DNA of 64,000 nucleotides from Candidatus Ratteibacteria bacterium (GTDB lineage: Bacteria; Ratteibacteria; UBA8468; B48-G9; DTJG01): assembly GCA_041656495.1 (NCBI GenBank), contig JBBADJ010000002.1:139839-203838 (forward strand). The letters are read 5' to 3'. Position 1 is the stretch's first letter, and each line of letters opens with the position of its first letter. The notes beneath the pieces are model-generated. The model did no database searches. It worked only from the letters and a program-made list of their open reading frames with translations, and had not been told where the DNA came from. The position numbers and the translations under genes were made by a program. Below are positions 6,502 through 64,000 of this stretch, piece after piece.

Positions 6502-6530
6502 TTGACAGAATAAGGATAGCGGGATATTAT
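6502..6530 (+). promoter_or_regulatory. Sigma-70-like promoter (TTGACA-N17-TATTAT) ending about 9 nt before the radical-SAM gene's ATG (near-leaderless)
   Basis: Consensus -35, 17-nt spacer, AT-rich -10; lies in an AT-rich divergent region that also contains a (TA)7 tract. Confidence 0.35.
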
Positions 6531-6539
6531 CCGAATATT

Positions 6540-9400: not shown

Positions 9401-11883
9401 TATCCTATCAGGTTTCACTCCTTCTTACCGCGGGAATCAATATCCTTTTTGCAATTTCTGTCTATGTAAAAAATCAACACCGCCTTTCCAACAGAGTCTT
9501 TCCTCTTTCTTCTCTTAATCTCGCGTTATGGTGTTTTTCAACATTTGCGATTGTATCGTCCCATTCCACCACACAAGCAGAAATAGCCATACGGATTGCC
9601 TGCTCTATAGGAGCTTTTCTTCCGGCGAACTTCCGTTTTTTCGTTGATACCCTAGGACGTCCCCAAGAGCCCTTTTCTCTCCGCCAAAAAAGAGTTCTCA
9701 CGCTCTTTTATCTTTTGGGTATCTGTCTTGCCGCCATAACATGGCTCCCCAATTTTATCCGTTCGGTTGAGTTTTCTCCTCCTGGTGTTTTTGTCGATCT
9801 TCCAGGACCAGAAGCACAATATGACGGACCACTTTTTTTCCTTTATTCCTTTGGAACTCTTCTTCTGATGGCAGAAGCATTGTTCCGCCTCTTTCAAAAA
9901 ACACATACCTCGCACGGAATCTTTCGCCTTGAAGTACAATATGTCTTTATCGCTATCCTCTCGGGAACGATCTTTGTCGCGGGAACCTCTCTCTTTCCCG
10001 CACTTTTAGGAAGCACACTCTTAAGTAGGTTCGCGCCATTCTCTTCTGTCATCATGACAGGGATTATTTCGTATGCTATCGCCCGGTACCATATATTGGA
10101 TATTTCTATTGTCTTTGAAATGACAACCCTTGCGATCCTTGTAACAGGAGTGCTTCTTCTCTTCTATCTCGCCAGTACCCTGCTTCTCACAAAAATTCAA
10201 TATATATTTCTCCTTTCTCCTTCCTATAGTTCCATCCCTATACTCTTTAGTGCCTTCGCAGTCGCACTTCTATATACTCCTGTAAAAAAATTCATTCAGA
10301 ACCTCGCACTTCACCGGATTTTCCCTCCCAAAATAGATACTGGAGAGATCTCCAAAGAACTTACGGCAACACTCTTTTCACATATAGAATTCTTTGGCTT
10401 TTTCAATGATATTTCCCGTCTTCTCAGTAGTAAACTTCACATTCCCGAAACCATGGGACTCATTCTTCCCCCTTCCACTCCTCAAGAACCCTCCATTCAA
10501 ACTCTTCCCGCCACATGGTCTCTTGAACATTCCTCTGATTCTTCTATCCTTGCCTCGTTCCAAAAAGAGAAAAAAGCTCTTATCAGAGAAGAGTTAGAAC
10601 GATTTCCCCATATTGAAAGCAACCTCAAAATCATCCAGGAGTTTAAGAAGAACGGCTTTGATCTTGCGGTTCCGATTCTCCAAAGAGAAACAGTCTTCGG
10701 CGCAATCCTTTTTCGTAATAAACATTCACAAACACTCTTCACAAGACAAGAACTTCTTCTTCTTGAGAATATCGGACTACAACTCGGCATTGCAATAGAA
10801 AACCTTGCTCTTTACAGAAGACTCTCTAGACTTCATCTTTATCAGGACAGTCTTCTTGAAAACTCACCGAGCGGAGTAATTGGAATAGATGCGGATAACC
10901 GAGTAATTATCTTCAACAGAGAAGCAGAGCGCCTTACCGGGTATCAACGCTCCTCAATGCTTGGGAAAGAGTATAATGCCCTTCCTGAAGAGTTAAAAGA
11001 GATCGTCTTTTCTGTAAGAGAATCACAGCAAAATATCAGGGGCGTTGAAAGAACGGTTCTGAATAGAGAAAAAAATATTCCTCTTCAGGTACTTATGCAT
11101 ACCTCTGCCTTTTATGACAGCCATAAAAAGTTTCTTGGAATCCAGTTGATCTTTTCCGATATCACGCCGATGAAAAATCTTAAAGAGAATATCGCTCGCA
11201 CAGAACGGCTCGCTTCCATTGGAATCCTTGCGGCGGGGCTTGCGCATGAAATTAAAAATCCCCTTGTTTCAATACGAACCTTTGCGCAACTTCTTCCTCA
11301 AAAATTTGAAGACGCGGAGTTCCGAGAAGTCTTCTCAAAACTTGCCATCCAAGAAGTAAATAAAATTAATAGCTTAGTAGAAGCAATCCTTGCCTTTGCA
11401 AAACAAAAACCTCCTGAATTCCGAGAAGTATCCCTCGGAGATATTATCCGCGACACTCTTCTTCTGATAGGAATTCAGAAAAATAATATTCAGGTCTCTT
11501 TTACAGAACTGGATGGAAAAAAAACCGCTCTGTTAGATGCAGATGCGGAAAAATTAAAACAGGTCTTTCTAAACCTTATTCTCAACAGCCGTGACGCAAT
11601 GCCCAAGGGAGGAGATCTTTCCATTACCATTACCGAGGAGAACAATCACCTCAAAACAGTACTGTCAGATACAGGATCCGGAATAGAAGAAGCCCTTATT
11701 GAAAAAATATTTGACCCCTTCTTTACTACAAGAGAAAAAGGAACAGGACTCGGTCTTTCTATTGTTGCCACCATTATCCATGAACATCATGGTACAATCT
11801 CTATAACAAGCTTGCCTTCAACAGGCACTACGGTCTCTATTGAACTTCCAAAACATCAGTCGGAAGAAGGACAGCCTCTATGA
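9397..11883 (+). CDS. Membrane sensor histidine kinase (multi-TM N-terminal domain, GAF/PAS, HisKA, HATPase_c)
   Basis: About 280 aa polytopic N-terminus (7TM-type HK sensor); PAS region; HisKA H-box LAHEIKNPLVSIRTF; G-boxes DTGSGI and GTGLGLSIV. Confidence 0.85.
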   Translation: MISYQVSLLLTAGINILFAISVYVKNQHRLSNRVFPLSSLNLALWCFSTFAIVSSHSTTQAEIAIRIACSIGAFLPANFRFFVDTLGRPQEPFSLRQKRVLTLFYLLGICLAAITWLPNFIRSVEFSPPGVFVDLPGPEAQYDGPLFFLYSFGTLLLMAEALFRLFQKTHTSHGIFRLEVQYVFIAILSGTIFVAGTSLFPALLGSTLLSRFAPFSSVIMTGIISYAIARYHILDISIVFEMTTLAILVTGVLLLFYLASTLLLTKIQYIFLLSPSYSSIPILFSAFAVALLYTPVKKFIQNLALHRIFPPKIDTGEISKELTATLFSHIEFFGFFNDISRLLSSKLHIPETMGLILPPSTPQEPSIQTLPATWSLEHSSDSSILASFQKEKKALIREELERFPHIESNLKIIQEFKKNGFDLAVPILQRETVFGAILFRNKHSQTLFTRQELLLLENIGLQLGIAIENLALYRRLSRLHLYQDSLLENSPSGVIGIDADNRVIIFNREAERLTGYQRSSMLGKEYNALPEELKEIVFSVRESQQNIRGVERTVLNREKNIPLQVLMHTSAFYDSHKKFLGIQLIFSDITPMKNLKENIARTERLASIGILAAGLAHEIKNPLVSIRTFAQLLPQKFEDAEFREVFSKLAIQEVNKINSLVEAILAFAKQKPPEFREVSLGDIIRDTLLLIGIQKNNIQVSFTELDGKKTALLDADAEKLKQVFLNLILNSRDAMPKGGDLSITITEENNHLKTVLSDTGSGIEEALIEKIFDPFFTTREKGTGLGLSIVATIIHEHHGTISITSLPSTGTTVSIELPKHQSEEGQPL

Positions 11884-13814
11884 ATTATGTGATTGTTTCC
11901 ACAAATGAAAAAGCAATAAGCCATGCAATACGTATTGTATTAAAAGAGAAGTATGTGGTGGAGGAAGTTCCTTACACTCTTCTCTGTGAAACAATCGTGG
12001 CCCGCAGACCAGGGGCTGTCATCTTTGATGCAGACGATCATGGAGAGCTTACTCCTGAACGATTACTATCTCTTTTTTCTATTGATCCCTCCCTTACCGT
12101 TATTCTTTTAGCAGATCGGCTGAATAACACTATGGAAAAAGCCCTTGAAACAGGAGCCTTTGAGATTATTGAAAAACCTTTTCAATCTCTTCGCATTCTC
12201 CATACTGTAAAACGGGCGATTGTGCACGATACCTTCTCCCGGCAGAAGGATTCTCCGCATTCCACACCTTTTTCCGAAACCTCGCTCTCAATAACCTCCC
12301 GCGATACAACAACTTTTTTTGAAGAACTCTCTCAAACAATCGCCTCTTGTATGGATAGCCCGGAACATCTTCTTTCTGAAACATTTCTTCTTCTCCGAAA
12401 ATATCGCCATACAGCAAAAACCGCTTTTTTCCTCCGAAAAAACAGCCAATTTATTCCCATTGCATCTCTTGGAATAGATGACAAATTTCTCTCTGAAATT
12501 CTTGTACCATCTACACACCCTCTCATAGAATGGTTTTCCAGAAAAACCTGTATGGTAGCGGTGGAAAATCCTGACATGAACCCTGCTATCCGTTCCTTGC
12601 TTGAAATGTGCAATGTGCAATGTGCCTTCCCCTGTATCTCCTTTAATGGAACCCTTATTGGATTCCTTCTTACTGGAGGACCTGTCACGGGAAGAGCGTT
12701 GGTAGAGCAGGATATCTCTTTTTTTACAAGTTTCTCTGATTTTTTAACTACCGCCATTGAAAATATAGGGTTACAACAGGAAATTATTGCCCAAAAAAAC
12801 TATCAGGAAGCCATTGTAACCAATGTTCCCAGCGGTATTATCGGAGTAAATGAAGAAGGTAAAATCATTGTATGCAATGAAAGCGCCCATACTATTTTCG
12901 GCATTGACCAATCCGAAGGAATAGGCTCTCCGATAGAACGGCTTGGCGCTCCTGTTGCCGATGTTATCCGTCAAACCCTTGATTCTCAAGAACCTATTGT
13001 ACGGAAGGAACTTCTTCTCTCTCCAGAAAAAATCATTATCGGAATAAGCACCAACCCCATTGTTTCAGAAGGTACACTTCAGGGAGCGGTGGCAATATTT
13101 CAAGATCTCAGCGCTATCAAAGTGTTGGAGGCAAAAGAACGCGAGGTAGAACGCAACGGGTATCTGAACTCTTTAGCATCCCGGCTTTCTCATGAACTGA
13201 AAAATCCCTTAGTCGCTATTAAAACCTTTTCTCAGTTACTTCCTGAAAAATTTGACGATCAGGAATTTCGTACCTCCTTTGCAAAGATTGTACAAGACGA
13301 AATCACAACAATCAATATGATTATAGAAAATATCAGTAAACTTGCGGAGACCCGTTCATTTCATACAAGCGAATTTGATCTTGTTGATTTTTTACATACC
13401 CTCCGCGGCACCTATGAAACAGATAGGCGTACTCCAAATGTTTCGTTTCAAATTGAAAAACAGAGTTCTTTCCCTATTGCCGGAGATCCGCTCCGTATCA
13501 ATGAAGCCATCGGCCATCTTATCTCATTTTTTCAAGAGGAAGAAAACAATGCTTTCGTCACAATCAAGGCAGATACAGAGGACTCTTCCTTCCTTCTTGA
13601 GGTATCTGGAAACTGCCACAAGAACCGGACGAACGACAATCTCCTCTCTTCTTTCGCGCCTGAATTAAAACAGATCGCTTCTATTGGAGTGATTCTTGCT
13701 AAAAAAATATTTGAAGCCCACCACGCTGATTTTTCTGTAACACAGAATCAGAACAAAACCTCTTTTCTTACCCGTATTCCCCGTTCTTCTCATGGCAAAA
13801 ATATTAATCGTTGA
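11880..13814 (+). CDS. Histidine-kinase paralog with N-terminal receiver-like domain, GAF/PAS, HisKA and a degenerate ATP-binding domain (possible pseudokinase or phosphotransfer protein)
   Basis: H-box LSHELKNPLVAIKTF is paralogous to the upstream HK; the C-terminal domain lacks canonical DxGxG and GxGLGL G-boxes (EVSGNCHK; ASIGVILAKKIFEAHH); receiver-like N-terminus lacks the acidic DD pair (VIVSTNE). Confidence 0.7.
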   Translation: MNYVIVSTNEKAISHAIRIVLKEKYVVEEVPYTLLCETIVARRPGAVIFDADDHGELTPERLLSLFSIDPSLTVILLADRLNNTMEKALETGAFEIIEKPFQSLRILHTVKRAIVHDTFSRQKDSPHSTPFSETSLSITSRDTTTFFEELSQTIASCMDSPEHLLSETFLLLRKYRHTAKTAFFLRKNSQFIPIASLGIDDKFLSEILVPSTHPLIEWFSRKTCMVAVENPDMNPAIRSLLEMCNVQCAFPCISFNGTLIGFLLTGGPVTGRALVEQDISFFTSFSDFLTTAIENIGLQQEIIAQKNYQEAIVTNVPSGIIGVNEEGKIIVCNESAHTIFGIDQSEGIGSPIERLGAPVADVIRQTLDSQEPIVRKELLLSPEKIIIGISTNPIVSEGTLQGAVAIFQDLSAIKVLEAKEREVERNGYLNSLASRLSHELKNPLVAIKTFSQLLPEKFDDQEFRTSFAKIVQDEITTINMIIENISKLAETRSFHTSEFDLVDFLHTLRGTYETDRRTPNVSFQIEKQSSFPIAGDPLRINEAIGHLISFFQEEENNAFVTIKADTEDSSFLLEVSGNCHKNRTNDNLLSSFAPELKQIASIGVILAKKIFEAHHADFSVTQNQNKTSFLTRIPRSSHGKNINR

Positions 13815-15153
13815 CGATGAAACAAATGTACGGGAATCTCTAAGATTCGCCTTAAAAGATCAGCATACGATCCGGTTTGCGGATTCAGGAGACAAGGCAT
13901 TGAAAGAGATTGCCTATAATCAGCCAGATCTTGTGATTCTTGATATTATGATGCCTGGAAAAAGTGGAATTGATACGCTTCGTGAAATCAAAAGGGATTA
14001 CGCGCATATCTCGGTAATCATGCTAACTGCCGCTGCCGACCTCTCCACAGCTATCAACGCCATGAAACTCGGCGCCAGCGATTATATTACCAAACCGTAC
14101 GATGTGGAGGAGCTTCTCTTTCAAATAGAAAAGATTATAGAACAAAGAAAACTTCATCAGAAAATCGGGTTGCTTCAAGAAGAAGTTGAAAGAGAATATC
14201 CGGTTGCTTCTTTCATCTTCCAAAGCAAAAAGATGAAGGAAGTTCTTGATATCGCAAAAAAAGCCGCTCCAACGGAAAGCTCCATTATTCTTACTGGACC
14301 CACTGGTGTCGGAAAAGAACTTGTAGCCCGTTTTATCCATACCAATAGCACGCGAGAAAAAGAGCCCTTTATCGCAATACATTGCGCCGCAATTCCAGAT
14401 ACACTCTTTGAAAGCGAACTCTTTGGCTACGAACGAGGCGCCTTTACTAATGCATTCAAAAGAAAACCCGGAAAGATAGAGATGGCCGCAGAAGGAACCA
14501 TCTTTCTTGATGAAGTCAATGAAATTCCTTCTCTTCTACAGGTAAAGCTTCTTCGGTTTCTTCAAGAAAAAAAATTCTCCCGCCTCGGAAGCAATGAACT
14601 TCTTTCAAGTAATGCCCGCATTCTTTCCGCCTCCTCGCAATCCATTACACCGCCCCATAAGACTTTTCGCGAGGATCTTTACTACCGACTTAGCGTGGTG
14701 CCGATAGCAATTCCGTCCCTTACAGAACGGAAAGAAGATATTGTTCCTATCGCAGAATATTATATTGAACAGTTTGCGAAAAAATATAAAAGCCGCGCTA
14801 AAACCCTTTCATTTGAAGCAGAAAAGGCCTTTCTCGCCTATCCATGGCCAGGAAATGTACGAGAATTAAAGAATGTTATTGAACGCTCCCTTGTTCTCCG
14901 TCGCGACGCGGAAAAGATTGACATAGAAACTCTTCCTTCTGAAATTTCTGAAAACTCTCTTCTTCCTTATAAAGAACTCTCTCTTGAAGAAGAGGTCCGT
15001 CAACTTGAAACCACACGGATACTTCATGCGCTTACACAAGAAAAAGGGAATCAGGTAAAGACTGCGAAACGACTCGGAATCACCAGACGAATTCTTCGGT
15101 ATAAGATGGAAAAATTACAGATTGCCTGCGAACAACAAGACCCTAACGCATAA
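13792..15153 (+). CDS. Sigma-54-dependent response regulator (NtrC family: REC, AAA+ sigma-54 activator, Fis-type HTH)
   Basis: REC (KILIVDDE...LDIMMPGKSG), Walker A GPTGVGKE, GAFTGA-like motif reading GAFTNA, arginine finger region, C-terminal HTH (QVKTAKRLGITRRILRYKM). Confidence 0.88.
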   Translation: MAKILIVDDETNVRESLRFALKDQHTIRFADSGDKALKEIAYNQPDLVILDIMMPGKSGIDTLREIKRDYAHISVIMLTAAADLSTAINAMKLGASDYITKPYDVEELLFQIEKIIEQRKLHQKIGLLQEEVEREYPVASFIFQSKKMKEVLDIAKKAAPTESSIILTGPTGVGKELVARFIHTNSTREKEPFIAIHCAAIPDTLFESELFGYERGAFTNAFKRKPGKIEMAAEGTIFLDEVNEIPSLLQVKLLRFLQEKKFSRLGSNELLSSNARILSASSQSITPPHKTFREDLYYRLSVVPIAIPSLTERKEDIVPIAEYYIEQFAKKYKSRAKTLSFEAEKAFLAYPWPGNVRELKNVIERSLVLRRDAEKIDIETLPSEISENSLLPYKELSLEEEVRQLETTRILHALTQEKGNQVKTAKRLGITRRILRYKMEKLQIACEQQDPNA

Positions 15154-26706: not shown

Positions 26707-26830
26707 TGCCCCTGGCAACACCTACTCTCCCGTTCACTCTCGTAAACAGTACCATCGGCGCTGGAGGGCTTAACGACCGTGTTCGGGATGGGAACGGGTG
26801 TGGCCCCTCCGCCATGATTGCCAGAGGCAA
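26707..26830 (-). rRNA. rrf: 5S ribosomal RNA
   Basis: The reverse complement contains the conserved 5S loop and helix blocks CCCGTTCCCATCCCGAACACGG…GTTAAGCCC…AGCGCCGATGGTACTG…GGGAGAGTAGGT, and closes a 12-bp helix I between its 5' UGCCUCUGGCAA and 3' UUGCCAGGGGCA ends. About 123 nt. No 16S or 23S gene is adjacent. Confidence 0.9.
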
Positions 26831-53421: not shown

Positions 53422-55723
53422 GCAATCCTTTTAAAATAGTGCGGGGTTTCCCTTCCCGGTAGGCTCCCACAATACCTTCCTCCTCCATCCGTTCAACAAG
53501 ACGCGCGGATTTATTAAACCCAATCTTAAGCCGGCGCTGAAGCATTGAAATAGAGGCAATCTTTGTTTCAAGCACAAGACGGACCGCCTGATGGTACAGA
53601 TCATCCTCAGAGCCGTCCATCGTAAAAGAGACCGTATCCTGTTCTTCTTTGGTATGGGTAAGTATCTCCCGACGGTATTCAGTTTCTCCCTGGGACTTCC
53701 AAAAACCGGTAACTTCTTCAATCTCTTCATCGGAAATATAACACCCCTGAGAACGAACAGGATGGGATTTTCCCGGAGGAAGGAAGAGAAGATCCCCTCT
53801 TCCAAGAAGCTTCTCTGCTCCAACCGAATCAAGAATGGTCTGAGAATCAAACTTTGATGCAACCTGAAATGCTATCCGGCACGGCAGATTCGCCTTAATC
53901 ACTCCTGTAATAACATTAACCGACGGCCGTTGTGTTGCCAAAATAAGATGAATTCCCGCCGCGCGAGAAAGAGCCGCAAGACGAATAACAGATTGTTCTA
54001 TCTCATTTTTCGCTATCATCATCAAATCCGCAAGTTCATCAATCACTACTACAATATAAGGAAGTTTCTCTTCTACCTCAGGATGGCTGTTATAGGTCTC
54101 TATATTACGCGCCTTTACCTGCGCAAAGCTCTTATAACGCTCGCTCATCTCCCTTATAAGCCATTTTAAGGAAGTTACTGCCTCTTTAATATCTACAATA
54201 ACAGGAAGAAGAAGGTGAGGAATATCATTATAAAGAATGAGTTCCACCATCTTTGGGTCAATCATCAGAAACCTAACCTCTTCCGGAGAAGCCTTATAAA
54301 GAATGCTAGTAATAAGAGAATTAAGACATACGGTCTTTCCAGATCCAGTCGCGCCCGCAATCAAAAGGTGAGGCATCAATTTAAGATCCGAAACTACCGG
54401 CCTTCCAAGAATGTTCTCTCCTATCGCAATAGTCAATTTTGACGGAGAAGAAAGAAATTCTCTGCTTTCAAAAATTTCCCGAAGATAGACAAGAGTAATT
54501 TCCCGGTTTGGAACTTCTATGCCTATCGTGGATTTTCCGGGCAATGGCGCCACCATTCTAATAGAACTCGCCTTAAGACTCATTGAAATATTATCTGCTA
54601 TTCTTGTAATGCGCGAGATAGGAATACCCGGCGCAGGCTGAAGTTCATACAGGGTTACCCTTGGACCCTGATTAATCTGCACAATCTCACCTTCAATGCC
54701 AAAATCGCTCAGAGTCTCTTCAATAACCTGCGCGTACCGTTCAAGGTCTTCTTTGGTCTCGCGTTCTGTGCTCTTTCCACGTTTCAACATAGTAACCAGA
54801 GGAAGGCGATACTTTTTTTTACCGGAAGAAGAAAGAGAAGAGTCGGGCAATACGCTTGGTAAAGGTAAAGACGTTGCGGAAATTGATTTTGTCTCGCTCT
54901 CTACTGGTATCTGATCAGAAGAAACCATAATATTCGGCTTTTTAGCGCCACTCCTTTTAGAGATTGGCTTCTTCTGATCCAAAAAAGAGGGTTCTGCTCG
55001 GGTACCGCTCCTTCGGGAAAACTTAATCTTTGAAGGAGAATGAGACGGAACCTCTTCTTGTGGAAGAAGATCTCGTAGAAAAAAGGTTTCTCTGACCGCC
55101 TCAAAAGGAAGAAGAAAGAGACGCGATAAGGCAAAAAGAAAGCCTGCGGTTGTCAGTCCTAAAAGAAAAATACCTCCCTTGCTTCCAAAATATCCCCGCA
55201 CAAAAGAGGCTGTCAAAATACCTAAAATCCCTCCTCCGGAATATCCGGAATCGCTCCATCCCATACAGGTACGGAGAGTATCCAAAAGCCCTGTTCCCGC
55301 AATAAGGAGACCCGCCAAACTAAAGAGTTCTAAAAGAGAAAAGGTAAAAGAACTCCATATCATCGCCCAGCCCGCAAGAAAAAGGGCAAAAAAGAAGAGA
55401 TAGGCGAAATGACCGAATAAAAAGAAGGCGGCCGCGGAAAGATTAGCGCCAAAATAGCCGCCAAAATTTACAGGCTCCGCATAAACAGGCCACCCAATCT
55501 GAAAAGTTGAGAAGACAGGATCTGCTTCATGGAAAGAAATAAGAGAAAAAAAGACAAAAATCGCCGCACCGATTAACAAAAAACCAGAAACCTTTTTTCT
55601 ATGGTTGCCCATAGGTATAAAAATAGCATATAATAAAGAAAAACAGAAAAAAAGAGAGGTACCTAAAGATTCTTCCAAGGGAAGATTATATTTTTTTATA
55701 GATGTAAATCTCAACCCTGCCAT
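53387..55723 (-). CDS. ftsK: DNA translocase FtsK
   Basis: N-terminal TM domain, proline/serine linker, motor domain (GATGSGKT Walker A), gamma winged-helix. Confidence 0.92.
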   Translation of the reverse strand: MAGLRFTSIKKYNLPLEESLGTSLFFCFSLLYAIFIPMGNHRKKVSGFLLIGAAIFVFFSLISFHEADPVFSTFQIGWPVYAEPVNFGGYFGANLSAAAFFLFGHFAYLFFFALFLAGWAMIWSSFTFSLLELFSLAGLLIAGTGLLDTLRTCMGWSDSGYSGGGILGILTASFVRGYFGSKGGIFLLGLTTAGFLFALSRLFLLPFEAVRETFFLRDLLPQEEVPSHSPSKIKFSRRSGTRAEPSFLDQKKPISKRSGAKKPNIMVSSDQIPVESETKSISATSLPLPSVLPDSSLSSSGKKKYRLPLVTMLKRGKSTERETKEDLERYAQVIEETLSDFGIEGEIVQINQGPRVTLYELQPAPGIPISRITRIADNISMSLKASSIRMVAPLPGKSTIGIEVPNREITLVYLREIFESREFLSSPSKLTIAIGENILGRPVVSDLKLMPHLLIAGATGSGKTVCLNSLITSILYKASPEEVRFLMIDPKMVELILYNDIPHLLLPVIVDIKEAVTSLKWLIREMSERYKSFAQVKARNIETYNSHPEVEEKLPYIVVVIDELADLMMIAKNEIEQSVIRLAALSRAAGIHLILATQRPSVNVITGVIKANLPCRIAFQVASKFDSQTILDSVGAEKLLGRGDLLFLPPGKSHPVRSQGCYISDEEIEEVTGFWKSQGETEYRREILTHTKEEQDTVSFTMDGSEDDLYHQAVRLVLETKIASISMLQRRLKIGFNKSARLVERMEEEGIVGAYREGKPRTILKGLHGDQEHSLEDT

Positions 55724-55761
55724 AAAGAGAGTTCTTAATAGTTACCTTCTGGAGAAGATCT

Positions 55762-56121
55762 ATGAAACAGGAATTTGAACGGGAACGAAAACGGTTGCGA
55801 ATCGCAAGTGTTCTCCAAAAAGAGCTGTGGACAATCCTGCGGCACGACTTTTCAGATGAACGTCTCGCTTTTCTTACTATTACCGCGGTAAAAGTAAGCA
55901 AAGATTTCAGAAAAGCGACCATAACAGTAAGTCCAATGGGATCTTTAGAAGAAAAAGAAGCCGCCATCGCCGCACTTCAAGAATCCCGCAGACATATCCG
56001 CCAAATTTTAGCAAGCCGTATTGCCATAAGATCAATTCCTGAACTTGAATTTATCCCTGAAGACGGCTCTGCGGCACGGATTGAAGAAATTTTACGGGAG
56101 ATTCAAGATGAACGAAAATAA
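55762..56121 (+). CDS. rbfA: Ribosome-binding factor A
   Basis: KH-like RbfA fold, ...LTITAVKVSKDFRKATI...; 119 aa. Confidence 0.8.
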   Translation: MKQEFERERKRLRIASVLQKELWTILRHDFSDERLAFLTITAVKVSKDFRKATITVSPMGSLEEKEAAIAALQESRRHIRQILASRIAIRSIPELEFIPEDGSAARIEEILREIQDERK

Positions 56122-57730
56122 GATCCGGAATCTTCTCCTCTCTCTCTTACAAAAAGAAGGTATAGAAGCTCCAAAACAATTCCGGGTATTCCGCCAGGAA
56201 AAAAAAGCCTTTGGAGACTTTTCTACCAATCTTGCCTTTATGCTTGACCGAAACCGCAATAATCCACAGGCTTATGCCTCCCATATTGTTAAGGCGCTCA
56301 AAGAAGAGAACAAAAACGATCACCTCTTTGAAAAGATAGAAGAACAGGGAGGCTTTATAAACTTCTTTCTTCCGCAACGCGCTCTAAGCGAAGCTGTCGC
56401 AACCATCCTCTCTCAGGGAACTTCCTTTGGAAAAAACAGTACTAAAAAAGACGAAACCATCCTTCTTGAATTTGTAAGCGCAAATCCGACAGGACCTCTT
56501 ACCATCGCGCATGGACGCCAAGCCGCTTTTGGAGAGGCTCTCGCCCGAATCCTCACCGCCTCGGGCGCCACTGTTACAAAAGAGTATTACCTCAATGACT
56601 GCGGCCGCCAGATGAAACTTCTCGGTCTTTCCCTCAAAGCCCTTCATCTCCGCGCCACCGGTATAGAGTACAAAATTCCTGAAGATGGATACCACGGCGA
56701 TTATATGCAAGAGATCTCACAGCGTCTTCCGCATACCAACCTTCCCCTTAGCGACGAAGAGTACACAACATTCGCCCAAAAAGAGATCCTTTCCAGTATC
56801 ACGCAAGATCTTAAAGATTTCGGAGTCTTCTTTGATTCATGGAGACGAGAAAGCGAATTGCGGCGCGAAGGAAAGGTAGAAGCGAGTATTGAGGAACTTT
56901 CTAAAAAAGGATTTTCCTATGAAAGTGAAGGTGCGCTATGGTTCCGTACCACTCTTTTCGGCGATGACAAAGACCGCGTACTACGCAAACAAGATGGCTC
57001 TTACACTTACCTTGCTCCGGATATCGCCTACCATGCCGAAAAAATCGGCCGTGGATATAACAGGCTTATTACTATCCTGGGACCAGACCATCTCGGATAT
57101 ATATCCCGGCTAAAAGCCGCAGTTGAGGTATTTGGATTTTCTGCCGAGAACCTCAATATTCTTACGGTTCAACTTACCACCCTCTACAGGGGCACGGAAA
57201 AGATTGCCATGTCTACCAGAGCCGGCGACTTCCTCTCCCTTAGACAACTTATTGACGAGGTTGGAAGCAATGCGGTAAAGTTCTTCTTTCTCTTCAGAAA
57301 AGCAGATAGTCATCTTGATTTTGACCTTGAACTTGCAAAAAAAGAGAGTGATGAAAATCCTGTCTATTACCTTCAATACGCCTATGTTCGGGCGCTCCAC
57401 ATCCTTCAGCATGCGAAAGAAAAGAAGATCTCTCTTCAAACACCGCCTGACCTCTCTCTATTAAATGAAGATTCTGATATCGCCCTTATCAAAAAGCTAA
57501 CTGGATTTCCTTCTGTTATTGAATCCGCCTCTTCTGGTCTTGAAGTCTCTTTGGTAAGCAGGTATCTTCTTGATCTTGTAGGCCTCTTTCATTCCTATTA
57601 TCAAAAAAGCCGGGTAATCACCGACACAATCCCCCTTTCACAGGCGCGCCTCGCTCTTATACGCGCTTTCCTTACCGTTATTTCCAATGGCATGGATCTT
57701 CTTGGAATCACCAAACCAGCAGAGATGTAG
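56108..57730 (+). CDS. argS: Arginine--tRNA ligase
   Basis: Class I aaRS with N-terminal Arg_tRNA_synt_N domain and DALR anticodon-binding domain; start trimmed to MNENK. Confidence 0.9.
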   Translation: MNENKIRNLLLSLLQKEGIEAPKQFRVFRQEKKAFGDFSTNLAFMLDRNRNNPQAYASHIVKALKEENKNDHLFEKIEEQGGFINFFLPQRALSEAVATILSQGTSFGKNSTKKDETILLEFVSANPTGPLTIAHGRQAAFGEALARILTASGATVTKEYYLNDCGRQMKLLGLSLKALHLRATGIEYKIPEDGYHGDYMQEISQRLPHTNLPLSDEEYTTFAQKEILSSITQDLKDFGVFFDSWRRESELRREGKVEASIEELSKKGFSYESEGALWFRTTLFGDDKDRVLRKQDGSYTYLAPDIAYHAEKIGRGYNRLITILGPDHLGYISRLKAAVEVFGFSAENLNILTVQLTTLYRGTEKIAMSTRAGDFLSLRQLIDEVGSNAVKFFFLFRKADSHLDFDLELAKKESDENPVYYLQYAYVRALHILQHAKEKKISLQTPPDLSLLNEDSDIALIKKLTGFPSVIESASSGLEVSLVSRYLLDLVGLFHSYYQKSRVITDTIPLSQARLALIRAFLTVISNGMDLLGITKPAEM

Positions 57731-57776
57731 AGATCGCATCCATGCCTCTTTTTCTGCCAAAACATCTTCCACTACG

Positions 57777-57805
57777 TTGACATATCAACAGGGATACGAT
57801 ATAGT
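57777..57805 (+). promoter_or_regulatory. Sigma-70-like promoter (TTGACA-N17-TATAGT) immediately upstream of the pilB ATG; implies a leaderless transcript
   Basis: Consensus -35 hexamer, 17-nt spacer, -10 TATAGT ending 6 nt before the ATG at 57812. Confidence 0.4.
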
Positions 57806-57811
57806 CTTTGC

Positions 57812-59521
57812 ATGCCGACAAAACGAGAAATTACAACGATTATCCAAAATATGGGGCTCTGGGACAAGAGAACTCTTGACAGAGCGCTTGAAGATCTTGA
57901 AAGTTCCGGTCGCCCGCTAAAAGAGATATTTCAAAGTATGGGCCTTCTTCCTATCGGCGAAATATCTCCCACCCTCTTCTTCCAACTCGGCATTGTTCAA
58001 CAAGAGCTTCCTGCACGAGAAATACCCAAAAACGTTCTCACTACTATTTCTTCTTCCTTTGTAAAAAAACATCGGATCATTCCATGGGAAATCCGAGAAG
58101 ATGGAAAACTTATTGTCGCTTCTGACGATCCCCTTAATATTCTTGCAACAGATTACTTCAAAAAAGCAGTAGACTGGGAGAGCGAAATAGAGGTATTTAT
58201 CACCTTCCCAAATGAAATAGATCAACTTCTTGAAAAATATTATGAACAGCAAGATATAGAGGACCTCTCATCCCTTCTTCAGGAAGCGGGAAGCTCTTCT
58301 GTGGAGGCCGTTGAAGAAGAGGAAGAAATTATTTCCGATGAAGATGAAGAGGCGCTTGCGCTTCAAGCGCCTGTAGTAAAGATCGTCAATCTTATCTTTG
58401 TAGAAGCTCTTCGCCGACGGGCAAGCGATATCCATCTTGAACCTCTTGAAAAACGCTTTCGGGTCCGATTCCGCATTGACGGAGTCCTCTACGAAGTCGT
58501 AAGTCCTCCTAAACGCATTGAACGAGCAACCATTGCCCGTATCAAACTAATGGCAAAGATGAATCTTGCGGAAAAACGAGTCCCGCAAGACGGCCGCATT
58601 AACTTAGATCTTAGCGGCAGACCTATTGACTTCCGCGTTTCCGCACTTCCCGGAGTTTATGGCGAAAGCGTTGTCATGAGAATCCTTGATAAAACCACCA
58701 GTCTTAAAGACCTTGAACAACTCGGATTTGTAGGAAACGATTTAGTAGTATGGGAAACTCTGATGAAATATTCAGGAGGAATTGTTCTGGTAACAGGACC
58801 GACCGGAAGCGGGAAAACTACTACCCTGTACGCCTCTCTGAAAAAACTCAATACCATTGATAAAAAATTAATGACGGTTGAAGAACCAGTAGAGTATCAG
58901 ATCGCGGGGATCAACCAGACCCCGGTTCTTTCAGAGATAGGACGTACCTTCTCCGCTATTCTCAGAGCATTCCTTCGCCAATCACCCGATATTATTCTTG
59001 TAGGAGAAATACGAGACGTTGAAACCGCAGATATCGCTCTTCGCGCCGCCCTTACCGGACACCTTGTCTTCTCAACACTCCATACCAATGACGCGCCAAG
59101 CGCAATTACCCGTCTTATTGACCTCGGCATTCCGCCATTTTTGGTGGCATCCGCTGTACAAGGCGTTATGGCACAGCGGCTTGTGCGGGTTCTCTGCAAA
59201 TACTGCAAGGAACCTTATCAACCCACACCAGAAGAGGAACGCATTTTAGACAGAAAAGAGGGAGAACCCTATGAACTCTTCCAGCCCAAAGGATGCGCGG
59301 AATGCAACTTTACCGGCTTCAGCGGACGACTCGGTGTCTTTGAGATCTTTCAGATGACTGACAAAATGCGAGAACTGACTCTCCAACGGGTTTCTGCCAG
59401 CGAACTACGAAAAGCCGCGATTCAACATGGAATGAAATCCATGCGAGACGACGGTATCGCAAAAACAAAACAAGGTATTACAACCCTTCAAGAAATCTTT
59501 GATGTAGCAGGAGAAGAGTAA
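57812..59521 (+). CDS. pilB: Type IV pilus / T2SS assembly ATPase (GspE/PilB family)
   Basis: T2SSE_N domain, acidic linker, Walker A GPTGSGKTT, Asp and His boxes, tetracysteine zinc motif (CKYC…CAEC). Confidence 0.88.
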   Translation: MPTKREITTIIQNMGLWDKRTLDRALEDLESSGRPLKEIFQSMGLLPIGEISPTLFFQLGIVQQELPAREIPKNVLTTISSSFVKKHRIIPWEIREDGKLIVASDDPLNILATDYFKKAVDWESEIEVFITFPNEIDQLLEKYYEQQDIEDLSSLLQEAGSSSVEAVEEEEEIISDEDEEALALQAPVVKIVNLIFVEALRRRASDIHLEPLEKRFRVRFRIDGVLYEVVSPPKRIERATIARIKLMAKMNLAEKRVPQDGRINLDLSGRPIDFRVSALPGVYGESVVMRILDKTTSLKDLEQLGFVGNDLVVWETLMKYSGGIVLVTGPTGSGKTTTLYASLKKLNTIDKKLMTVEEPVEYQIAGINQTPVLSEIGRTFSAILRAFLRQSPDIILVGEIRDVETADIALRAALTGHLVFSTLHTNDAPSAITRLIDLGIPPFLVASAVQGVMAQRLVRVLCKYCKEPYQPTPEEERILDRKEGEPYELFQPKGCAECNFTGFSGRLGVFEIFQMTDKMRELTLQRVSASELRKAAIQHGMKSMRDDGIAKTKQGITTLQEIFDVAGEE

Positions 59522-60696
59522 TGGCAAAACGGATTGAAGAACTCTTAGAAACCATTGTGCGAGAAGATGCCGCAGACCTCCATATCAACGTGGGACTTCC
59601 GCCAATTATGCGCGCCCATGGCGGATTAATGAAGATGGATAAGGAAGATCTCACGCCTGACGACACTGTTGCTTATATGAAAGCCATCACCTCACGGGAA
59701 CATCAGGAAGAAATTCAACGCGTGGGAGGAACCGATTTCGGCTTTGCCTTCAGAGATCTTGCACGATTCAGAGTAAGTGTCTTCAAAGAACGGGGCAACC
59801 TTGCAATGGCGCTCCGGCTTATTCCTCATCGGTTTCTCACCTTTGAACAGATAGGACTTGACCCAAAAACAATGAGGTATCTTCTTACTCGTCCCCGGGG
59901 ACTCATTCTTGTTACCGGACCGACCGGAAGCGGGAAAACAACTACCCTCGCCTCCATGATAGATTATATCAATTCCCACATGGAACGACATATCATTACC
60001 GTAGAAGATCCTATTGAATATTTCCATTCCCATAAACGCTCCATTATAACCCAAAGAGAGCTCGGCGTAGACGTACCGACCTTTCCGGAAGCATTGCGCC
60101 GCGGTTTGCGCCAAGATCCCGATGTATTTCTGGTGGGAGAACTTCGCGACCTTGAAACCATTGAAGCGGCTATTACCGCGGCTGAAACAGGACACCTTGT
60201 CTTTGGAACACTCCATACCACGGGAGCCACACGGACTATTGACCGAATCGTCAATGTCTTTCCCGTCGCTCAGCAAGAACAGATCCGGGTAATGCTTTCT
60301 GTCTCTATCCTCGGCATCCTCTCGCAGATTCTTCTAAAAAGAAGAGATAAACCTGGACGGGTTGCAGGATTTGAACTTCTGATAGCGACGCCATCTGTAC
60401 AGAACCTTATCCGGGAAAGAAAGACCTACCGGCTTCTCTCTGATATTCAAACAGGAATGAAATGGGGAATGGTTGCCCTTGACGCCCACCTGATGAACTC
60501 ATTCAAACAGGGGAAAATTTCCTTTGAAGATCTTATGGTCTATAGCTATGACCCCGAACAGGTCAGACTCCAATTAGTAGCAGAAGGAGTCATTGACGAA
60601 GCGCTCGCCGCCACTGCTGGAAAACAGGACGGTATTACCGACGTAGTTCTTGACGACGAACAAAATAACGCCCCACCCGCGATTTCCAATGGCTGA
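59521..60696 (+). CDS. pilT: Twitching-motility retraction ATPase PilT (with about 45-aa C-terminal extension)
   Basis: PilT-specific N-terminus (LHINVGLPPIMRAHG), Walker A GPTGSGKTT, no zinc motif; 391 aa. Confidence 0.88.
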   Translation: MAKRIEELLETIVREDAADLHINVGLPPIMRAHGGLMKMDKEDLTPDDTVAYMKAITSREHQEEIQRVGGTDFGFAFRDLARFRVSVFKERGNLAMALRLIPHRFLTFEQIGLDPKTMRYLLTRPRGLILVTGPTGSGKTTTLASMIDYINSHMERHIITVEDPIEYFHSHKRSIITQRELGVDVPTFPEALRRGLRQDPDVFLVGELRDLETIEAAITAAETGHLVFGTLHTTGATRTIDRIVNVFPVAQQEQIRVMLSVSILGILSQILLKRRDKPGRVAGFELLIATPSVQNLIRERKTYRLLSDIQTGMKWGMVALDAHLMNSFKQGKISFEDLMVYSYDPEQVRLQLVAEGVIDEALAATAGKQDGITDVVLDDEQNNAPPAISNG

Positions 60697-62413
60697 AAAA
60701 AAACTTCTCGGACAACTTCTTATTGAGTTGGGAATGATTACCGAACAAGACCTGGAATCTGCATTGAAACAGCAGATTAAAGCAAAAAAATTTCTTGGTC
60801 GTATTCTTGTGGAACAGGGATTCTTAGAAGAAAAAGAATTAAAGAAAGCCCTTAGTATTCAAGCGGGAATTGAAATTATTGATCTAAAGATGATCAATGT
60901 GGATAAGCGCGCGGTAGAATCTTTTCCTTCTGCCCTTGCCAAAAGTTACAATGTCCTTCCTATCGCCTTAGAAAGAAATATCATCACCATCGCAGTAGGA
61001 GATACGCTGAGCCTCAACATTCAAGACGACGTATCATTTATTCTTGGATTCAAGGTAAAGATGGTCATGGCGGACGAGGATGAAATCAAGGAACTTATCA
61101 ACGTTCATTACGGCTCTGAACTTGAAACCATAGACGACCTTATCAAATGGCTTTCACAGGATATTGCCGAAATGGACGAGTTGGAAACACTCGCATCCTC
61201 CCGCGGAGAGTATGCCACTATCACCAGTCTTGAAGAGATCGCGTCCCTTCCTCCTGTCATCAAACTCTTTGACCTTATCCTTCTTCAAACAGTCCGGGAC
61301 AATGCCTCCGACGTACATCTTGAACCCTTTGAAAATGATTTTCGTGTACGGTACCGCGTAGATGGCGTACTCTACGATATGGTGCACCCACCCAAAGGTC
61401 TTTCCTTTGCCCTTTTCTGCAGGTTCAAAATCATGGCAGGAATGGATATCGCAGAACGGCGCCTTCCTCAAGACGGACGTATTGAACTCTCTGTTATGGG
61501 ACGACCCGTGGATCTACGAGTCTCCACAGTTCCCACTGTCTTTGGAGAATGTCTTGCGGTCCGTGTTCTTGACCGCGGAAAAACCATCTTTGACCTTGAC
61601 GCCCTTGGACTCCTTGAAGAAGATAAAGAACAACTTGAACGCTTCATCAAAAAACCTCATGGAATTATCCTTGCCACAGGACCGACAGGATGCGGAAAAA
61701 CCACAACACTGTATGCCCTGATAAGAAAAGTCAATACTCCGGAAGTAAAGGTTATTACCACAGAAGATCCTGTTGAATATATGCTTGATGGAGCCATCCA
61801 AGTTGCGGTAAAAGAATCTATCGGCCTTACTTTTGCCTCCTGCATCCGGAGTATTCTTCGTCAAGACCCTGATATTATTCTTGTAGGAGAGATTCGCGAT
61901 TTTGAAACCAGCCAAATGGCAATACAATCCGCACTTACCGGACACCTTGTATTAAGCAGTCTTCATACCAACGACGCTCCTACCACCATTATGAGAATGG
62001 TAGATATGAAGGTAGAACCCTTTTTGCTTTCTTCAACCATTGAAGGCGTTATCGCACAACGATTGGTACGGATTCTCTGCCCGCGTTGCCGGGAAGAGTA
62101 CCGGCCTTCAAAACAGGAGATTCTTGAACTAAACCTCTCTGAAGAAAGAGCGAAAGATATGCTTTTTTACAAACCAAAAGGCTGTCCCTTCTGCCGGGCC
62201 GGATATAAAGGAAGAACCCCTATCTTTGAGGTTCTCGTTCCCACTGAAAAATTCTGGAACGCAGTCTTTGAAAACCGTCCGCTCGGAGAAATACGGGAAA
62301 TCGCAGTAAACGATTGCGGTATGAGAACCTTAGTAGAAGATGGATACAAGAAGATTCATCTTGGAATAACCTCCATTGAAGAGGTCGCCAAAGAAGTACA
62401 TGGTTACGGATAG
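60689..62413 (+). CDS. Second PilB/GspE-family ATPase with N-terminal MshEN-type (c-di-GMP-binding) domain, MshE-like
   Basis: Two tandem 24-aa motifs separated by a 5-aa spacer (LLGQLLIELGMITEQDLESALKQQ - IKAKK - FLGRILVEQGFLEEKELKKALSIQ), then T2SSE_N, Walker A GPTGCGKTT, Zn motif CPRC…CPFC. Confidence 0.85.
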   Translation: MAEKKLLGQLLIELGMITEQDLESALKQQIKAKKFLGRILVEQGFLEEKELKKALSIQAGIEIIDLKMINVDKRAVESFPSALAKSYNVLPIALERNIITIAVGDTLSLNIQDDVSFILGFKVKMVMADEDEIKELINVHYGSELETIDDLIKWLSQDIAEMDELETLASSRGEYATITSLEEIASLPPVIKLFDLILLQTVRDNASDVHLEPFENDFRVRYRVDGVLYDMVHPPKGLSFALFCRFKIMAGMDIAERRLPQDGRIELSVMGRPVDLRVSTVPTVFGECLAVRVLDRGKTIFDLDALGLLEEDKEQLERFIKKPHGIILATGPTGCGKTTTLYALIRKVNTPEVKVITTEDPVEYMLDGAIQVAVKESIGLTFASCIRSILRQDPDIILVGEIRDFETSQMAIQSALTGHLVLSSLHTNDAPTTIMRMVDMKVEPFLLSSTIEGVIAQRLVRILCPRCREEYRPSKQEILELNLSEERAKDMLFYKPKGCPFCRAGYKGRTPIFEVLVPTEKFWNAVFENRPLGEIREIAVNDCGMRTLVEDGYKKIHLGITSIEEVAKEVHGYG

Positions 62414-62460
62414 ATCCTTTTAGGGTATAATAAAGAAAGAAACGTAAGGAGTGAAACCCT

Positions 62461-63759
62461 ATGGCAACATTTCAATACAATGCACTTGATGCCGGAGGGA
62501 AAACAGTTACCGGAACCCTCGAAGCAGGAAGCGTGCCTGAGGCAATCACAAAGTTAAAGGGAATGGGATACTTTGTGACCAGTGTAGGTCAGGCAAGAGG
62601 CGGGAAAAAAGCTTCCGGAGAAAAACCAGGAGAAAAAGCAAAACCCGCCGCACAAAAAAAGAAAAAAGCAGGGGGCGGAGGTGGACTTTCTTTCTCATTC
62701 GGCGCCGCCAAGATCAAGCCAAAAGAGATGACCATCATTACCCGTCAGCTTGCTACCCTCATCGGCTCAGGTCTTCCTCTGTTACGCGCCCTTAAGGTTC
62801 TTGAACAACAAAGAAAAGGCGCGGCGGCAACCGTGCTTGCCAGAGTTTCCCAAGAAATAGAACAGGGTGCGCTCTTTTCTGAGGCGCTTGCAAAATTTTC
62901 AGGAAGTTTTCCTCGTATCTATATAGCCATGGTTCGCGCGGGAGAAGCCGGCGGCGCCCTTGAAACTGTTTTAAGCCGACTCGCTACCTTTATGGAAAAC
63001 GAGGCAAAATTAAAAGCGAAAATTAAATCCGCAATGGCATACCCGGTACTTGTTATCTGTGCAGCAGTCGGTATTCTTCTATTCATTATGCTCAAAATCG
63101 TTCCTACCTTTGCAAAGATCTTTGAAGATATGGAAGCAGGAGAGCTTCCCGGCCCTACCCTTCTGTTAATGAAGATCTCCAATCTTCTTCTTACCAAGTT
63201 CTATCTTATTATTATCGCGGTTGTGGTACTTGTTATCGCCTATAAAATTGCCGTAAAAATCAAAACAACTCGGTACCTCATTGACGCACTGAAACTAAAA
63301 ATATTCCTCTTTGGTCCGGTTATCTTAAAAACCATTATCGCGCGCTTTTCCAGAACCTTTGCAACCCTCATCACCAGTGGTGTTCCTATCCTCCAATCTC
63401 TACAAATTGTACGGGACACCGTAGGAAACGATGTCTTTGCTAAAGCCTTGAACGAGGTTCGCAACAGAGTCAGGGAAGGAGAAGGCCTCTCTGGAGTTAT
63501 GCTTCGCACAAGTGTATTCCCTCCCATGGTTACCAATATGATCGCTGTCGGCGAAGAAACCGGCGCTATGGACGCTATGTTAGAAAAAGTCGCTGATGCT
63601 TACGATGCAGAGGTAGATGCCGCGGTCTCGGCGATGACCTCCATGATTGAACCTATCCTTATTATCGGTCTAGGCGGCATTGTCGGATTTATTGTTATCT
63701 CTCTCTTTATGCCGCTTATCAAACTCGCAATGAGTCTTTCAGGAGGTGAAGGAGGCTGA
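62461..63759 (+). CDS. pilC: Type IV pilus / T2SS platform protein PilC/GspF with lysine/glycine-rich N-terminal insert
   Basis: Two T2SSF repeats, three TM segments; low-complexity insert [29 protein letters not shown] after the first about 45 aa. Confidence 0.88.
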
Positions 63760-63797
63760 TACAAAAAAGCCTATCCTACAAGAAGGAGCGTACGACT

Positions 63798-64000
63798 ATG
63801 GAACAGAATCAAAAAAAAATAGGTTTCACATTAATTGAACTGCTTATTGTTATTGCCATTATAGGAATGCTCGCGGCCATTATCCTGCCGGCTCTCTCAG
63901 AGGCGCGAGAACGAGCAAGAATAACAACCTGTATGAATAATATTCGCCAGATCGGAGCCGCATTTGAGATGTATGCGGGAGATTACTACGAACGATTTCC
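63798..64000 (+). CDS. Prepilin-type N-terminal cleavage/methylation domain protein (GspG-like pseudopilin / pilin), 5' partial at window end
   Basis: Class III signal KKIG|[32 protein letters not shown], followed by C.NNIRQIG pattern typical of PulG-like pseudopilins. Confidence 0.8.

Follow-up and report, generated by a model that had tools for sequence, protein, structure and literature searches.

Two extension motors, PilB and TfpB, have been described in the type IVa pilus (T4aP) system of Acinetobacter baylyi, each being needed for optimal extension and having a distinct role (PMC8213720; PMC11656802), and the purpose of multiple PilB homologues was listed as an open question in a 2024 review (PMC11656802). 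The present analysis deals with an operon that begins near the end of a 64,000-nt stretch of DNA from a Candidatus Ratteibacteria bacterium (assembly GCA_041656495.1, contig JBBADJ010000002.1, positions 139,839 to 203,838; the whole stretch is called the window in the following). The locus is a genuine, closely packed pilus/secretion-type operon, with two assembly ATPases, named A1 and A2, around PilT. We favour, with moderate confidence and on the basis of sequence comparisons, the view that it is the start of one type IV filament (pilus or pseudopilus) operon of a kind common to Ratteibacteria and Planctomycetota, with two extension ATPases, one PilT, one platform and GspG-like/DUF1559 prepilins, in which the two motors would alternate on a single filament. 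The features of the operon that fall within the window are the following.

57777–57805 (+): sigma-70-type promoter, TTGACA (57777–57782), 17-nt spacer, TATAGT (57800–57805), 11 of 12 consensus positions
57812–59521 (+): A1, PilB/GspE-type extension ATPase, 569 aa, MshEN and T2SSE domains
59521–60696 (+): PilT retraction ATPase, 391 aa, TIGR01420 435.8 bits
60689–62413 (+): A2, second PilB/GspE-type extension ATPase, 574 aa, MshEN and T2SSE domains
60707–60862 (+): tandem 24-residue MshEN-type cyclic di-GMP (c-di-GMP) motif of A2, KLLGQLLIELGMITEQDLESALKQQ ... FLGRILVEQGFLEEKELKKALSIQ, NF053729
62461–63759 (+): PilC/GspF platform protein, the sole one at the locus, 432 aa, two T2SSF domains
63798–64000 (+): prepilin, N_methyl and DUF1559 matches, cut by the window end

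Comparison with known systems

By analogy, the closest functional precedent is the A. baylyi PilB and TfpB pair. Both systems have two distinct, catalytically competent PilB-type ATPases (as predicted here, where they are known from genes alone), one platform and PilT. However, tfpB of A. baylyi is not part of the pilB-pilC operon, while the present operon has an ATPase gene on either side of pilT; furthermore, A1 and A2 are not TfpB according to the NF053534 model, and form clades of their own in the Planctomycetota-Verrucomicrobiota-Chlamydiota (PVC) bacteria. The canonical T4aP pilB-pilT-pilC arrangement of Myxococcus xanthus and Geobacter has, like the present one, an extension ATPase, PilT and the platform, followed by the pilins, and the MshEN N-domain of M. 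xanthus PilB binds c-di-GMP (reviewed in PMC11656802). The differences are the extra extension ATPase that lies here between pilT and pilC, the GspG-like or DUF1559 nature of the pilins, the scores of both ATPases, which are below the PilB cut-off, their position outside the PilB clade and the fact that pilMNOPQ were not seen nearby.

With the core of the type II secretion system (T2SS; gspE-gspF-gspG-H-I-J-K) the operon shares a platform protein whose best match is GspF, and in L061 and L062, two more distant relatives, G-H-I-J-K-like pseudopilins, one of them a GspK-like HHH_3 protein, come directly after the platform gene, as in the T2SS. It differs from the T2SS in having PilT and a second ATPase, and in that the ATPases are under the GspE cut-off and outside the Vibrio/Providencia GspE clade. 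The machine is, therefore, T4aP-like in its PilT and PilB-like motor, and T2SS-like in its GspF-like platform, its GspG-K-like pilins and the lack of pilMNOPQ nearby.

With MshE of the mannose-sensitive haemagglutinin (MSHA) systems of Vibrio and Aeromonas, A2 shares a tandem MshEN c-di-GMP motif, for which A2 exceeds the NCBIfam cut-off, but the MSHA locus (L056 in our comparison) has the secretin MshL, MshM and MshN followed by MshE-MshG, with no PilT and another gene set, and the MshEN c-di-GMP motif is widespread outside MSHA systems (PMC11656802). The initial annotation of this DNA had called A2 MshE-like and considered a hybrid T4aP/MSHA machine. The former label is not supported, since the MshEN/T2SSE_N domain is generic and present on both ATPases, and A2 does not cluster with Aeromonas MshE; the latter finds no support in a locus that has PilT and no MSHA-specific genes (mshI-Q).

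Finally, a preprint on giant genes (West-Roberts et al., bioRxiv 10.1101/2023.11.21.568195) describes a T2SS-like locus beside such genes in Omnitrophota, with gspE, gspF, gspD, rcpC, many small genes with class III signals and a Rotamase_2 peptidyl-prolyl isomerase (PPIase). Like the window operon, it comes from a PVC group, and the Rotamase_2 PPIase is conserved in it, a SurA_N/Rotamase_2 PPIase being the last gene here. It is reported to differ in having gspD and rcpC and in preceding the giant genes, a secretin not being found here by phmmer with single references. The preprint also reports Ratteibacteria to be without proteins of at least 5,000 aa (bioRxiv 10.1101/2023.11.21.568195), and its accessible text contains no mention of two ATPases flanking PilT where the Omnitrophota locus is treated. 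The window operon may correspond to this locus.

The operon and its genes

The genes found 5' of A1 are ftsK (minus strand), rbfA and argS, and A1 is for this reason taken as the start of the operon. The order pilB, pilT, second ATPase, pilC and pseudopilin, the close packing and the 8-nt overlap, all noted in the initial annotation, agree with the sequence and with the Pfam and NCBIfam matches, and the second PilB/GspE-type ATPase does lie within a single operon that has one gene for a platform protein. As read from the sequence, A1 and pilT overlap by 1 nt (TAATG) and pilT and A2 by 8 nt (ATGGCTGA). The start of A2 is ATG 60689 rather than TTG 60650, with all orthologues and independent gene calls in agreement, and an AAGGAG Shine-Dalgarno sequence precedes the platform gene inside the 47-nt gap after A2. 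An assembly artefact was ruled out by the identity of the window with contigs of several independent assemblies (0 mismatches). A protein 100% identical to A1 is listed by NCBI under Candidatus Ratteibacteria.

The TIGR01420 match of PilT spans residues 5–346 and, at 435.8 bits, exceeds the cut-off of 319.1, which places the protein in the PilT/PilU family. The platform protein is recognized as such by two T2SSF (PF00482) stretches (210 bits), and is below the equivalog cut-offs for both GspF (TIGR02120, 379 versus 424 bits) and PilC (373 versus 700 bits). The prepilin that starts at 63798 has a GspG-like N-terminus and a DUF1559 (SBP_bac_10) body, with a full length of 221 aa (L003 11338–12003, L003 being the same contig, so that the window coordinate equals the L003 coordinate + 52460). 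Thus, the ATPase, the platform and the prepilins with a class III signal peptide, by which a type IV filament machine is recognized, are all found at the locus.

Family assignment and phylogeny of A1 and A2

Assignment to PilB or GspE through curated hidden Markov models (HMMs) was attempted and abandoned, as both ATPases fall between the two families and below every equivalog cut-off. The NCBIfam cut-offs are 675.65 bits for PilB (TIGR02538), 630.25 bits for GspE (TIGR02533) and 850 bits for TfpB (NF053534). The scores are 596.4 bits (GspE) and 574.8 bits (PilB) for A1, and 568.8 bits (PilB) and 567.0 bits (GspE) for A2, under the PilB and GspE cut-offs in each case; the A1 and A2 orthologues, with 590–648 bits on PilB, are all below as well. 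The values obtained with the TfpB model (486.1 bits for A1, 438.8 bits for A2) are also far from its cut-off. In Ratteibacteria, A1 scores slightly higher with GspE than with PilB and A2 higher with PilB than with GspE, while in Planctomycetota A1 scores higher with PilB. The top PDB sequence matches of A1 and A2 are Geobacter and Myxococcus PilB, a ranking that is ambiguous in that total bits favour the full-length PilB entries and bits per aligned core residue favour EpsE.

A neighbour-joining tree was calculated on 376 core columns with 100 bootstraps and PilT outgroups, the references being taken from PDB alignments and annotated records (PilB of Geobacter metallireducens, M. xanthus and Acinetobacter baumannii; EpsE of Vibrio cholerae; GspE of Providencia and Comamonas; MshE of Aeromonas). 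The upstream ATPases of Ratteibacteria and Planctomycetota form a single clade (bootstrap 90), and the downstream ATPases of the same two groups a separate one (bootstrap 65). A1 and A2 are outside both reference clades, that of PilB (Acinetobacter, Myxococcus, Geobacter) and that of GspE (Vibrio, Providencia), which have bootstraps of 100, and neither ATPase clade groups with Aeromonas MshE, to which A2 is not sister. The initial annotation had proposed such a phylogeny as the means of recognizing a GspE that is adjacent by chance; that case is not upheld, since synteny is conserved across phyla and A1 is outside the reference GspE clade. By the tests run, neither ATPase is a member of the curated PilB, GspE, MshE or TfpB families.

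The relation between the two groups was also addressed by a cross-test, in which HMMs built from Ratteibacteria A1 and A2 were run on other sequences. The highest scores with the A2 HMM (627–655 bits) belong to the downstream ATPases of Planctomycetota, which prefer this model by 21–46 bits. From the preferences seen in this cross-test, A2 is a derived clade, while A1 looks generic. A recent tandem duplication was ruled out, A1 and A2 being just 38% identical and each having orthologues in another phylum. From sequence comparison, they are old paralogues, namely a co-inherited duplication in which each copy has its own orthologue clade, and they would have either been together since before the split of Ratteibacteria and Planctomycetota or moved between them as a unit.

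Conservation of the layout in related genomes

Scanning genomes with A2 as the query gave 48 loci, whose open reading frames were labelled by BLAST. The order A1-PilT-A2-PilC is found in every Ratteibacteria-group locus (approximately 30 species-level metagenome-assembled genomes (MAGs), many of which are labelled Omnitrophota), with DUF1559 and GspG-like pilins usually coming after PilC. As to the labels, Ratteibacteria are frequently mislabelled as Omnitrophica according to one paper. The same order is present in the Planctomycetota loci (L037–L040 and L048), in a closed 4.59-Mb Phycisphaerae-type genome (L060) and in the more distant relatives L061 and L062, so that the A1-PilT-A2-platform order extends over more than 35 loci in two phylum-level groups. 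The gene numbers given in a paper on Rhodopirellula baltica (pilT, RB12773; pilB, RB12774; pilC, RB12781) are consistent with the shared order. The comparison with related genomes suggested in the initial annotation has thus shown A1-PilT-A2-PilC to be conserved, and the conservation of synteny across phyla indicates that the A1/A2 pairing is not coincidental.

Other genomes share the layout, and the window is an ordinary member of a conserved arrangement. The rarity of two PilB-type ATPases, which had been implied at the outset, is not borne out, as they are the norm in Ratteibacteria, are also found in Planctomycetota, and tandem PilB copies occur in other phyla. Most of the non-PVC loci among the 48 have a single PilB ahead of PilT-PilC. 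A tandem PilB-PilB-PilT-PilC order is found in L043 (7346–10770) and L045, from Candidatus Subteraquimicrobium and an Actinomycetota MAG, from which it follows that dual PilB operons arose elsewhere too; this tandem appears to be an independent duplication, since its copies cluster together in the tree. In two loci labelled 'Elusimicrobia bacterium' (L028) and 'Vermiphilus sp.' (L031) the operons are 72–75% identical to that of Ratteibacteria and nested inside its clade; incorrect binning or labelling of these MAG contigs is the probable explanation. No description of a dual-ATPase PVC operon, or of two ATPases around PilT, came up in literature searches. The operon is, therefore, an unstudied variant of a known machine, not new in kind, and common in public PVC genomes.

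Catalytic and c-di-GMP motifs

Both clades keep the PQDGR arginine region, Walker A, the Asp box, Walker B, the His box and two CxxC pairs. The four-cysteine zinc site is intact in A1 and A2, and Walker A of A2 reads GPTGCGKT. With this set of motifs, both ATPases are predicted to be catalytically competent. The main difference between A1 and A2 is found in the first approximately 60 residues. A2 scores 52.5 bits with NF053729 (cut-off, 38 bits) and its orthologues 60–71 bits, the motif being kept in all of them. In A1 of the Ratteibacteria group, the N-terminal MshEN c-di-GMP motif is degenerate and NF053729 gives no match. In Planctomycetota, both paralogues exceed the NF053729 cut-off (44–49 bits). 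Because both Planctomycetota paralogues keep the motif, the ancestor probably had two c-di-GMP-type motors, with loss of the motif from A1 along the Ratteibacteria lineage.

Promoter and start of A1

The promoter ahead of A1 is the top-scoring site within 55600–64000. Only 6 nt separate the end of its −10 element from the ATG at 57812, with no Shine-Dalgarno sequence, and transcription is predicted to start at the A of this codon, as in a leaderless message. The initial annotation had described a consensus sigma-70 promoter abutting the ATG: its position is confirmed, and 'consensus' should read 'near-consensus', the −10 element being TATAGT. In statistical terms, the promoter count over the region carries no signal (10 sites versus 10.2 expected), and the strict pattern of promoter plus ATG gives 2 matches versus 0.36 expected, with 9 of 100 shuffles also reaching 2. 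As the scan alone is not significant, the leaderless claim rests on cross-species conservation. At 19 of 25 Ratteibacteria-group loci a TTGAC[A/T/G] element, 16–18 nt and a TAAAAT-like −10 element ending 6–9 nt before the orthologous ATG are found, with no Shine-Dalgarno sequence, and the promoter–ATG geometry of L060 and L061 is that of A1. Five relatives differ, having a 12–22-nt leader at the A1 orthologue and, in some, a Shine-Dalgarno sequence. Thus, the leaderless first gene put forward in the initial annotation fits the promoter geometry and its conservation, and a leaderless or near-leaderless first gene is a prediction that is well supported comparatively. Elsewhere in the window (6502–6542, plus strand), a second promoter-like site, TTGACA-17-TATTAT, ends 9 nt before ATG 6540 of a B12-binding radical SAM gene, the start chosen by an independent gene call, and it may be common for first genes in this organism to be leaderless or nearly so.

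Downstream genes

The genes after PilC form two pilin blocks separated by a PerM-type permease (L003 11338–15674 and 16849–21050, equivalent to 63798–68134 and 69309–73510 in window numbering). The first block contains the DUF1559 prepilin of 221 aa, a GspG-like prepilin of 209 aa, a 599-aa protein with a PilX_N/GspK-like N-terminus, and prepilins of 179 and 239 aa. The second, G-H-I-J-K-like, encodes proteins of 155 aa (with a T2SSG domain), 146, 125, 208 and 790 aa, the last of which (L003 18678–21050) has GspK-like, HHH_3 and LTD (lamin-tail) matches along with a weak match to 'Verru_Chthon cassette protein A'. The SurA_N/Rotamase_2 PPIase (L003 21047–21299) closes the operon. In L060, the HHH_3 protein is 1726 aa long.

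In L061 and L062, G-H-I-J-K comes immediately after the platform gene, and the SurA_N/Rotamase_2 PPIase is also present. As only this set follows the platform there, the G-H-I-J-K block is probably the original one, and the DUF1559 block with PerM probably an insertion in this lineage. Both genomes have two ATPases and one G-H-I-J-K set, from which the duality would belong to the machine rather than to a second pilin set; the assignment of one ATPase to each pilin set was down-weighted on the same grounds.

Proposed mechanism and alternatives

In the mechanism that we consider, hexamers of A1 and A2 would dock by turns on the single PilC/GspF platform to polymerize one filament, which PilT would pull back. 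Labour would be split between A1 and A2 as reported for A. baylyi PilB and TfpB and, in Ratteibacteria, gating by c-di-GMP would apply to A2, with A1 working independently of the signal. The operon would be transcribed from the promoter with its start on the A1 ATG, and the downstream genes would be translated through coupling at the overlaps or from Shine-Dalgarno sites of their own. By analogy with A. baylyi, two extension motors for one platform are plausible.

Several observations weigh against this scheme. The c-di-GMP binding is predicted from the motif alone, and most A2 sequences have Leu or Phe in place of the canonical RLG arginine. The neighbour-joining tree, on 376 columns, leaves the deeper nodes without resolution, and the bootstrap of the A2 clade is just 65. 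The canonical PilB and GspE references prefer the A1 HMM, as the upstream ATPases do, so that the orthology of A1 rests on the tree and on synteny. Phmmer searches of limited sensitivity with single references (Providencia GspD, Aeromonas MshL and Acinetobacter PilD) gave no secretin and no prepilin peptidase in the 64-kb window, the following 10 kb or the related Ratteibacteria and Planctomycetota loci. Neither the window nor the next 10 kb showed PilM/N/O or GspL/M, and the check for downstream pilMNOPQ or secretin genes recommended by the initial annotation returned none within 10 kb. Finally, strict co-expression through translational coupling fits an obligate A1/A2 complex equally well.

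The latter alternative, to which we assign a low probability, is that A1 and A2 form the sole extension motor together, as a mixed hexamer or as a stacked complex, the duplication having given rise to a regulatory subunit (A2, binding c-di-GMP) and a core one (A1). A1 and A2 are indeed strictly co-inherited and adjacent across phyla, the 1-nt and 8-nt overlaps should match their synthesis by translational coupling, and PilB-TfpB hetero-oligomers have been raised as an open possibility (PMC11656802). However, both paralogues have the full catalytic set, whereas in heteromeric AAA-type rings one partner often degenerates, and PilT lies between A1 and A2, so that the two genes are not directly coupled. 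Moreover, the solved PilB, GspE and PilF structures matched to A1 and A2 are presumably homo-hexamers, which also counts against a mixed assembly.

It is unlikely, in our opinion, that the two ATPases serve two outputs through one platform, one of them building a short T2SS-like pseudopilus (G-H-I-J-K) for secretion and the other a long retractile DUF1559 pilus in a T2SS/T4P hybrid. The idea is suggested by the two pilin blocks after PilC in this genome (pln221/pln209/X599/pln179/pln239, then PerM, then G155-H146-I125-J208-K790), by the slight preference of Ratteibacteria A1 for the GspE model and of A2 for that of PilB, and by the proposal that the Omnitrophota T2SS-like locus with the same Rotamase_2 PPIase secretes giant proteins (bioRxiv 10.1101/2023.11.21.568195). 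Nevertheless, L061 and L062 carry both ATPases with a single G-H-I-J-K set, Planctomycetota A1 favours PilB over GspE, neither ATPase is inside the GspE clade and no GspD was found nearby by phmmer with single references. GspC, GspL and GspM, for which no specific search was made, have no Pfam family among the precomputed gene annotations of the loci, an annotation that covered the window except at approximately 20–24.6 kb and 46–48 kb.

The possibility that A1 serves as GspE in another T2SS, with genes at a different place, and is merely adjacent to a pilT-pilB-pilC operon is very improbable in spite of the marginally higher GspE score of Ratteibacteria A1 (596 versus 575 bits with PilB), and is effectively excluded by conserved synteny and gene overlap: A1 overlaps pilT by 1 nt, the sole strong promoter-like match in the intergenic region 5' of the operon abuts its ATG, the order is kept in more than 35 loci of two phylum-level groups, and A1 neither reaches the equivalog cut-off for GspE nor falls in the clade of that family.

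Other features of the window

Regulatory genes are present in the same window.

1116–2519 (−), 2643–3881 (+) and 9397–15153 (+): regulatory genes

These encode an HD_5/HD response regulator, RpoN (sigma-54), two PAS histidine kinases and a sigma-54-dependent response regulator. The HD_5/HD regulator is possibly of the HD-GYP type and, as such, a candidate c-di-GMP phosphodiesterase. Together, these genes may be relevant to regulation of the pilus operon, through c-di-GMP or in a PilR-like manner. No sigma-54 promoter was noticed when the short intergenic sequence ahead of the pilin gene was inspected by eye. A lone 5S rRNA gene (26710–26825, minus strand, 99.5 bits) is also found, with no 23S or 16S match and no tRNA genes in the 64 kb, and appears to be unlinked from other rRNA genes.

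Concluding remarks

The A. baylyi PilB/TfpB pair is the only worked example of multiple PilB, and in the operon described here both motors are hard-wired around PilT. The c-di-GMP motif, on both motors in Planctomycetota and on A2 only in Ratteibacteria, provides a natural contrast and, with some planctomycetes being culturable and genetically manipulable, the question is directly testable. The DUF1559 prepilin family is greatly expanded in PVC bacteria, and the locus nominates a machine that handles these prepilins. A further proposal, which we advance very tentatively, is that A1-PilT-A2-platform is an ancient and distinct PVC class of type IV filament machine, in which an obligate pair of extension ATPases (a hetero-oligomer or a fixed initiation/elongation relay), with c-di-GMP sensing partitioned to one partner in Ratteibacteria, assembles the DUF1559 prepilin family. 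If this were true, the operon would provide a natural, phylum-wide system in which to study why some pili need more than one PilB.

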